From: a virus
UHGV virus genome: UHGV-1619847
Reading direction: 5' to 3' (one strand)
DNA: 11,386 bases
In this document: positions 328-1,495 of the stretch, piece after piece
Position numbering within the stretch: position 1 is the first letter of the stretch
Layout of the letters: every line of letters starts with the position of its first letter
Translations under genes and position numbers: made by a program
Notes under the pieces: model-generated
Databases searched by the model: none
The model's input: only the letters and a program-made list of their open reading frames with translations
Told to the model about the DNA's origin: nothing

Positions 328-546
328 GATAATGGTTTATACCCTACACGGGATAACTTAACTGATATCCCTTTTAAAGGATAAAGGTATTCAAGCCTGA
401 CACATCATGCGCTGTATCGTCGCCGTATTCCCGTATTAACAGAGACCGTAGCCCGACGGGGAACTCCTTCTGCGCGAGTGTGTGGGAATAATCAAAAACG
501 ATGCACACCGGGGTTACCGGGTACACATATTTCATCATGCCAGCGA

Positions 547-583: not shown

Positions 584-994
584 TTAGTGCGGAAATATTT
601 GTGTAGTGTTCTGAATGTTCTCAGTAAAGAGTAATGAATTATCAAAGGTATAGTAATACCTTTTGTTTTCGTGGATATTTGTAATCCATCTGAAAACCCC
701 TGCTGTAGCAAGATTTTTCCTGTATTCGTAAAATGATAACTCTCCTGATTTGAATCCTTTTAAGGTGGCTTCTATAAGGCATTTATTTTTTGAAAATCTT
801 ACATTTACAACCTTACCCTGTCCTTTTATTAAAACCGTATTATCGTTTTCAAGAACAAGATGAATATTCTCTGTGGCTAAATAGTAAATGTAATGTGAGA
901 CATTGTGACGTTTTAGTTCAGAATAAAACCAGTGATAGTTTAAATTATTTCGCACTTTATCGAATATTTGTTTAAAAATGGCAACCTGAGCCAT
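584..994 (-). CDS. Hypothetical protein, no recognisable family (candidate effector of the AT-rich cassette)
   Basis: Minus-strand ORF in a roughly 33% G+C region, where a 136-141 codon open frame is unlikely by chance. The ATG at 994 is preceded by GGAAGG with 7-nt spacing (rc of 995-1012 = CACATGGAAGGTACTACA). The longer ORF-track start at 1009 has no Shine-Dalgarno (preceded by CCCCTCATATCAC), so 994 is preferred. Protein is rich in Tyr/Phe/Asn/Lys; I see no known catalytic motif. Confidence 0.5.
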
Positions 995-1050
995 TGTAGT
1001 ACCTTCCATGTGATATGAGGGGCGTAGTCTGCACGATTATCTAAATTGCT

Positions 1051-1284
1051 TCAATCTGGTCTGATCTGTTTTCTGAGCAATTCAGTAATGTCACTCTTTT
1101 CTTTGTTTGCTTCAGGAGAAACTCTTTTTTCTGAGCACAGTCTCCGGCGGCAGGCTTCAATGACCCAGGCTGAGAAATTCCCGGACCCTTTTTGCTCAAG
1201 AGCGATGTTAATTTGTTCAATCATTTGGTTAGGAAAGCGGATGTTGCGGGTTGTTGTTCTGCGGGTTCTGTTCTTCGTTGACAT
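1051..1284 (-). CDS. Ribbon-helix-helix (Arc/Mnt/CopG-like) DNA-binding protein, 77 aa
   Basis: Basic N-terminal tail (KNRTRRTTTR) followed by NIRFPNQMIEQINIALEQKGSGNFSAWVIEACRRRL, which lines up by eye with the P22 Arc core (FNLRWPREVLDLVRKVAEENGRSVNSEIYQRVMESF): beta-strand R-F/W-P, helix, G-x-S/N turn, helix. GGGA lies about 8 nt upstream of the ATG (rc of 1282-1284). Same strand as and 56 nt upstream of the 584-994 ORF. Confidence 0.55.
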   Translation of the reverse strand: MSTKNRTRRTTTRNIRFPNQMIEQINIALEQKGSGNFSAWVIEACRRRLCSEKRVSPEANKEKSDITELLRKQIRPD

Positions 1285-1432
1285 GAGGTTGTCCCGTATT
1301 CAGTGTCGCTGATTTGTATTGTCTGAAGTTGTTTTTACATTAAGTTGATGCAGATCAATTAATATGATACCTGCGTCATAATTGATTATTTGACGTGGTT
1401 TGATGGCGTAGATGCACGTTGTGACATGCAGA

Positions 1433-1447
1433 TGATAATTATTATCA
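1433..1447. promoter_or_regulatory. cosQ: cosQ-region palindrome TGATAAT-T-ATTATCA
   Basis: Perfect 7-1-7 palindrome about 37 bp upstream of the cohesive-end sequence. Lambda has the equivalent TGATAAT-C-ATTATCA in its right-end cosQ region (from memory). Exact cosQ boundaries are not determinable here. Confidence 0.4.
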
Positions 1448-1483
1448 TTTTGCGGGTCCTTTCCGGCGATCCGACAGGTTACG

Positions 1484-1495
1484 GGGCGGCGACCT
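1484..1495. other. cosN: cosN cohesive-end sequence (12-nt 5' overhang GGGCGGCGACCT); mature left genome end begins at 1484
   Basis: Exact lambda cohesive-end 12-mer GGGCGGCGACCT, preceded by the lambda right-end sequence ...CCGACAGGTTACG and followed by CTCGCGGGTTTTCGCTATTTATGAAAATTTTCCGG as in lambda's left end. Confidence 0.85.

Follow-up and report, generated by a model that had tools for sequence, protein, structure and literature searches.

Background

Among the accessory genes of phage lambda, bor and lom are 'moron' genes, expressed in the lysogen and encoding outer-membrane proteins with a known phenotype. A further cassette, composed of a ynfO/ylcI-type gene (family DUF3950) and a ydfO/ybcV-type gene (family DUF1398), lies in the slot between the lysis genes and cos; it is already catalogued and is a very common feature of lambdoid prophages (lambda, Qin, DLP12). 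In DLP12 the order is borD, ybcV, ybcW, ylcI, nohD, which corresponds to the layout of lambda, and in Qin the genes ynfO (b4533) and ydfO (b1549) stand beside nohA, a homologue of Nu1, in the order nohA-ynfO-ydfO. A 1.4-kb block carrying the PGAP labels DUF1398, YlcI/YnfO and nohD was matched in 4881 of 5426 complete E. coli genomes.

No functional study of the DUF1398 or the DUF3950 family, nor any report of toxicity, was found in the literature searched. Transcripts of both ybcV and ydfO have been reported for K-12, ydfO being strongly induced by ionic liquid (PMC4077768) and changing when DicC is over-expressed. The same paper (PMC4077768) states that over-expression of YdfO raises the resistance to oxidative stress and cites Wang et al. 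2010 for it. The portion of the latter publication available to us (PMC3105296) contains no mention of YdfO and names instead YfdK, YfdO, and YfdS of prophage CPS-53; as far as this portion goes, YdfO seems to have been cited in error for YfdO, and the phenotype was not retained as a functional lead.

Layout and base composition of the interval

The stretch of DNA analyzed here (hereafter the window), 11,386 nucleotides of the virus genome UHGV-1619847, contains the right end, cos and the late operon of a lambda-like phage; among phage records, Escherichia phage Kati is the closest (98.8% identity over positions 60–1700). Positions 1–85 are the 3' terminus of a spanin gene of the Rz type, recognized by a sequence match to an annotated relative. 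The boundary on the other side is marked by cosN (1484–1495, plus strand), the 12-nt lambda cohesive-end sequence GGGCGGCGACCT, the equivalent 12 bases of which are annotated as 'cos site' in the record of phage DE3, and Nu1 (1673–2218) and A (start at 2193) follow. Between Rz and cos, two adjacent, co-directional ORFs were found on the minus strand, at 584–1009 (141 aa) and 1051–1284 (77 aa), separated by 41–56 bp; the start of the smaller gene is 200 bp away from cosN. Both lie on the strand opposite to the late operon and are antisense to the late transcript. The spacer from the ynfO-like start codon to cos (1285–1483, minus strand), where the promoter of this gene is presumed to lie, has a GC content of 40% and is 96.5% identical to lambda.

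The original prediction for this interval had described two AT-rich, co-directional minus-strand genes immediately before cos, and this description was confirmed. It had also placed a sharp drop in G+C over about 850 bp. The drop itself is real, with a GC content of 0.31–0.32 at positions 601–1000 vs. 0.55–0.675 in the late genes (200-bp segments), but the length given for it overstates the sharp part, because the deep trough is confined to the DUF1398 gene (31.4%, z = −3.8 against all 411-bp segments of the window), while the ynfO-like gene upstream is only moderately low (44.4%).

Three attributes of moron genes were found here, namely a deviating composition (GC 31% vs. 55–57%), a position at a module boundary (the Rz–cos slot) and dispensability, lambdap78, the DUF1398 gene of lambda, being non-essential by CRISPRi (PMC10695390). 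Like bor and lom of lambda, the pair is AT-rich, non-essential and located at a module boundary, and like bor it is read in the direction opposite to the late operon; unlike Bor and Lom, neither of the two proteins has a signal peptide or a transmembrane segment. The view of the original prediction that the AT-rich pair is accessory cargo of foreign composition, placed where two modules meet, is supported.

The content of the Rz–cos slot varies among relatives, which may carry bor, KilA-N, lambdap79, or Ant there. In the window, positions 86–583 hold only short ORFs and no bor-like ORF, unlike in lambda and DLP12; the same place is occupied by a KilA-N gene in ev099 and by an Ant gene in YYZ-2008. 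One of the short ORFs (374–538, minus strand, 54 aa) is listed as 'hypothetical' in relatives and matched no family. Scans of positions 1–2300 for Rfam families and tRNAs gave no matches.

The DUF1398 gene and its product

For the gene nearer to Rz, the ATG at position 994 was considered the better start, as it is preceded by GGAAGG 7 nt upstream, whereas the ATG at 1009 has no Shine-Dalgarno sequence. The gene delimited in this way (584–994, minus strand) encodes 136 aa, as annotated for YdfO and YbcV of K-12. The chance of 136 open codons at the local composition is approximately 1.4e−5 and the dN/dS values among DUF1398 paralogues range from 0.12 to 0.37; on these two grounds the ORF was taken to be genuine and to evolve under purifying selection. 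The ynfO-like ORF was likewise regarded as a real gene.

The product, which had originally been described as a 136–141 aa protein of no recognized family, is a member of Pfam DUF1398 (PF07166), with a score of 147 bits vs. a cutoff of 22 and residues 13–131 aligned on profile positions 1–119 of 119. It can be aligned end to end with E. coli YdfO, for which an NMR structure exists (PDB 2HH8; E 1e−69), and has the same three-dimensional fold as this solved member. Sequence identity amounts to 102 of 136 residues with YdfO (Qin), 105 of 136 with YbcV (DLP12), and 76% with lambdap78. The family is small, with 196 representative clusters at E ≤ 0.001 among 1.84 billion, and all the members with a named source come from Enterobacterales.

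An AF2 model of good confidence (pLDDT 87.8) shows a tandem pseudo-duplication in which a helix-helix-strand-strand-strand unit occurs twice. The protein is basic (pI 9.4) and soluble, with neither a signal peptide nor any transmembrane or hydrophobic segment. The conserved positions of the family (R15, L27, Y35, T41, N43, G99, R112, and Y114) are not typical catalytic residues, which points to binding rather than catalysis. Judged by these sequence features, the product would be a soluble basic binding protein devoid of a catalytic signature, an orphan-fold protein that probably binds a ligand or a partner. The labels 'head protein' (PHROG 413, RefSeq) and 'envelope protein' were judged to be propagated annotation and were rejected, because the protein lacks a signal peptide and transmembrane segments, is non-essential, is not encoded among the head genes, and has homologues that stand alone in chromosomes.

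The small protein and the ribbon-helix-helix fold

The 77-aa product of the second gene (1051–1284, minus strand) was assigned to Pfam DUF3950 (PF13132; 75.7 bits vs. 25, E 2.5e−21) and to the NCBIfam family YlcI_YnfO_N (NF041551; 36.7 bits vs. a cutoff of 30), and all but two of its 77 residues (75/77) are identical to K-12 YnfO. It has a pI of 10.6, an arginine-rich N-terminal arm and a variable C-terminal tail.

The small protein had been predicted to be an Arc-like ribbon-helix-helix protein. It does resemble Arc in the AF2 and Foldseek results, although no test of this reached significance. The AF2 model (pLDDT 64.7) has an extended N-terminal arm followed by helices at residues 19–32 and 34–51, a topology compatible with the ribbon-helix-helix fold, and the best Foldseek hits (Arc, TCP domains, NikR, Reg576, ParD, and ArtA) are nearly all ribbon-helix-helix or related proteins, at E-values of 1.7–10. 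With hhalign, for which an Arc sequence identical to 1ARQ/1PAR was used, residues 11–33 were placed on Arc residues 8–30 in the expected register, at a probability of only 2%. Weak PHROG matches were to HicB-like proteins for 11 of 15 family members (E 0.009) and to Arc-like proteins for 5 of 15 (E 0.07). Pfam and PDB HMM searches gave no match linking DUF3950 to ribbon-helix-helix families, and in a profile search against 5.8 billion proteins the 120 matches listed comprised only close YlcI/YnfO relatives.

In comparison with Arc and Mnt of P22, the small protein is alike in its size, in a gapless register (...RNIRFPnqmIEQI...KG... on ...FNLRWPrevLDLV...NG... of Arc), in the predicted arm and two helices, and in having ribbon-helix-helix proteins as its nearest structural neighbours; it differs in that no significant sequence or profile match was obtained and in that its gene lies beside cos and not in an immunity region. 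The modelled structure suggests that the protein probably has an Arc-like ribbon-helix-helix core at residues ~11–51, with every test below significance. If so, it would form an Arc-like dimer that contacts DNA through a beta-ribbon and the arginine-rich arm and may serve as a small regulator.

Comparison with lambda, Qin, and DLP12

The original prediction could not say whether lambda has the same cassette. Both genes are in fact carried by lambda, as lambdap78 and an unannotated ylcI-like ORF, and likewise by Qin and DLP12; in lambda and DLP12 the homologues occupy the corresponding slot, with the lysis genes on one side and cos on the other, and lie on the same strand as in the window. The two proteins do match lambda right-end ORFs, although these are ORFs without known function. 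In lambda and its derivative DE3, the ylcI-like ORF has 64 codons, the first 49 residues being identical to the small protein of the window and the C-terminal tail being different (64 aa in lambda vs. 77 aa). This ORF is intact and lies ~200 bp from the right end of lambda (about 48.11–48.30 kb, minus strand; L002:2242–2436 in DE3), and no annotation for it is present in RefSeq NC_001416.1 or in the DE3 record. As for lambdap78 (L002:1175–1708; L012:1143–1676), it is annotated as a 177-aa 'head protein' with a GTG start and is probably over-extended, since its homologues start at Met-42 (MAQVAIF...), the codon that in the window is preceded by GGAAGG at 7 nt.

The gene order and orientation of the window are those of Qin, including the position beside the terminase gene Nu1, and the tail of ynfO runs into the upstream block of ydfO in an identical manner. 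Three differences from Qin were noted: the DUF1398 allele of the window is a variant of its own, with about 75% identity to each of YdfO, YbcV, and lambdap78; there is one mismatch in the palindrome of its upstream block (GATCAGACC); and the window copy belongs to a phage that appears intact and has its whole late operon, while Qin is a decayed prophage.

Lambda and DLP12 depart from the window in having bor to the left and an insert of ~610 bp, with the plus-strand gene lambdap79/ybcW, between the two genes. The segment is missing at the window junction 1067–1122 (compared with L002:1660–2274). According to a 2026 preprint, lambdap79 activates the NADase defence Vulcan, and escapers of lambda-vir delete lambdap79 through recombination with Qin (bioRxiv 10.64898/2026.09.04.749371); such recombination between lambda-vir and Qin would yield the gene arrangement seen in the window.

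Distribution and linkage of the two genes

The YlcI N-terminus was detected in 153 phage records, many Stx phages among them, and DUF1398 in 43, nearly all of which are lambda and close relatives. In the E. coli genomes, 9861 YlcI places were counted (at most 12 per genome), a full-length DUF1398 was present in 3011 genomes and any DUF1398 match in 5376, most of the partial matches across the latter being due to ycgX. This third E. coli paralogue is a solitary chromosomal gene located beside bluR. A tblastn match to YlcI in a Pasteurella phage was regarded as spurious, as it lies on the strand opposite to an annotated gene.

In lambda and DLP12 the 610-bp insert, with its opposite-strand gene, parts the DUF3950 and DUF1398 genes, and both remain intact. 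In YYZ-2008, a phage of the Stx type, homology to the window begins exactly at the ATG of the DUF3950 gene, with none upstream of it; the gene stands between Rz and an HNH/TerS packaging module, and no DUF1398 is present. The distant DUF1398 genes (Klebsiella aerogenes, Raoultella, and other contigs) are solitary, their chromosomal surroundings vary and include no ribbon-helix-helix gene next to them; such lone genes were seen on ~900–1000 contigs each in K. aerogenes and Raoultella. One lone gene of the K. aerogenes type, on a metagenome contig (L003:3600–4650), sits in a low-GC islet (0.37–0.46 vs. 0.54–0.66 in the flanks), with genes for a lipoprotein and an adenosine deaminase on either side.

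These data bear on the proposal that the cassette is a toxin-antitoxin, an abortive-infection or a repressor-effector pair. For a type II toxin-antitoxin or abortive-infection system, the ribbon-helix-helix protein would be the antitoxin and DUF1398 the toxin, a reading suggested by the location in a prophage cargo slot, by a small gene of the DNA-binding type lying 5' of a gene for ~136 aa with a short spacer between them, and by the weak similarity to HicB-like antitoxins in PHROG (E 0.009). Against it, either gene is widespread without the other, the insert in lambda and DLP12 uncouples them while leaving both intact, and DUF1398 stands alone both as ycgX and on the K. aerogenes and Raoultella contigs; the obligate operon structure and co-occurrence of type II pairs were not found for DUF3950 and DUF1398. 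No toxin family or fold was matched by the DUF1398 protein, and PADLOC (PADLOC-DB 2.0) returned no defence model, with a single chance-level match of DUF1398 to Csx23 (E 0.025, 12.6 bits) and nothing for the small protein. In view of the co-occurrence, the synteny and the lack of toxin or defence homology, the toxin-antitoxin or abortive-infection pair was rejected, and we would give it very little credence indeed. The originally proposed pairing, also in its repressor-effector form, is not supported: the genes are no obligate pair, neither product matches a toxin or defence family, and DUF1398 relatives are found alone in host chromosomes.

A role of the small protein at the late boundary was also considered, in which a ribbon-helix-helix protein would bind near cos or modulate read-through into the terminase genes and DUF1398 would be unrelated cargo. 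The DUF3950 gene lies directly beside the packaging genes, in divergent orientation, in phages with two different types of terminase (Nu1/A in lambda, HNH-TerS in YYZ-2008), and it has been reported in capsid-forming PICIs together with TerS and TerL genes (PMC13612085). Such a role is very unlikely nonetheless, given that the gene runs antisense to late transcription and that defective prophages with broken packaging modules retain it. A shared operator 5' of the DUF3950 gene was not found, the upstream DNA being unrelated in YYZ-2008, and this difference between the two phage types argues against a shared binding site; the repeat scan for an operator in the window returned only short, chance-level repeats.

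Taken together, we consider it likely that the interval consists of a ynfO/ylcI gene (DUF3950) and a ydfO/ybcV gene (DUF1398) in the Qin-type arrangement, two independent and dispensable pieces of cargo between lysis genes and cos, and no toxin-antitoxin system.

Upstream region and expression

Upstream of the DUF1398 gene lies a conserved block of ~70 bp (995–1068, minus strand) that contains the Shine-Dalgarno sequence and a palindrome. When the window, Qin, DLP12, and lambda were aligned together, the four sequences proved homologous from the palindrome onward, irrespective of what precedes it; in the Qin-type layout, ynfO ends with six codons that are this conserved DUF1398 upstream block read through. 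The palindrome, ~70 bp upstream of the DUF1398 start, reads GGTCAGACC in Qin, DLP12, and lambda, and the version of the window (1058–1066) differs from it by one base. In a genomic SELEX study, peaks of PdhR were obtained at ybcV/ybcW and ynfO/ydfO, where GGTCAGACC is the reported PdhR box, and the ybcV mRNA was 10-fold lower in a pdhR mutant (PMC7660256). The single change between GATCAGACC and this box could alter the control of the window allele by the host factor.

The same block can also be read in favour of a regulator-effector system, in which the ribbon-helix-helix protein represses or tunes DUF1398, or both genes form one operon in the Qin-type layout, the palindrome being its operator instead of, or besides, a PdhR site. 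In the window the genes are adjacent, co-directional and 41–56 bp apart, so that co-transcription is possible; they are neighbours on the same strand in Qin as well and stay in one neighbourhood in lambda and DLP12, and the conserved palindrome lies ~70 bp upstream of the DUF1398 start. A fused variant of the ORF also exists. This read-through fusion (P0013, 233 aa, corresponding to 584–1284 of the window, minus strand) joins DUF3950 and then DUF1398, the ynfO stop being changed to Trp and the frame restored, and belongs to a cluster of 761 public sequences; it may be real, or an artefact of assembly or gene calling, and could hint at a functional link. On the other hand, a DUF1398 gene is absent from the vicinity of most YlcI/YnfO copies, relatives of DUF1398 elsewhere occur without such a partner, and the palindrome is bound by PdhR in vitro, with a pdhR-dependent ybcV mRNA (PMC7660256). 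A regulator-effector relationship is in our opinion unlikely.

Under the preferred reading of two independent cargo genes, the DUF3950 and DUF1398 genes would be separate transcription units with promoters of their own, expressed outside late lytic transcription, and DUF1398 would be transcribed from the conserved block of ~70 bp that precedes it and carries the host-factor (PdhR-type) palindrome. Silencing of the DUF1398 gene by H-NS is likely because of its low GC content. A sigma-70 consensus scan found no minus-strand promoter for either gene and no minus-strand terminator was detected; promoter-like sites are no more numerous in the region than in shuffled sequence. The best sigma-70-like match within 300–1700 lies on the plus strand (1421–1448; GTGACA, 16 nt, TATCAT; 10/12) and points toward cos and Nu1, overlapping a 16-bp palindrome, GATGATAATTATTATC (1431–1446), just left of cos.

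Conclusions

The DUF3950 and DUF1398 genes are those nearest to the right end of lambda, and this position is kept in lambda-type phages. That the pair, or DUF1398 by itself, provides an undescribed function in lysogenic conversion, superinfection exclusion or counter-defence appears quite unlikely to us; the orphan fold of DUF1398 may have a new activity, or the putative ribbon-helix-helix protein may regulate host genes.

The main value of the analysis is one of correction. The protein that could not be placed is a member of a family that has a name and a solved structure, the ylcI-like ORF is missing from RefSeq lambda, where lambdap78 also appears over-extended, and the 'head' and 'envelope' labels appear baseless. 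For work that assigns functions to uncharacterised genes of E. coli or lambda, the two genes are cheap test targets.
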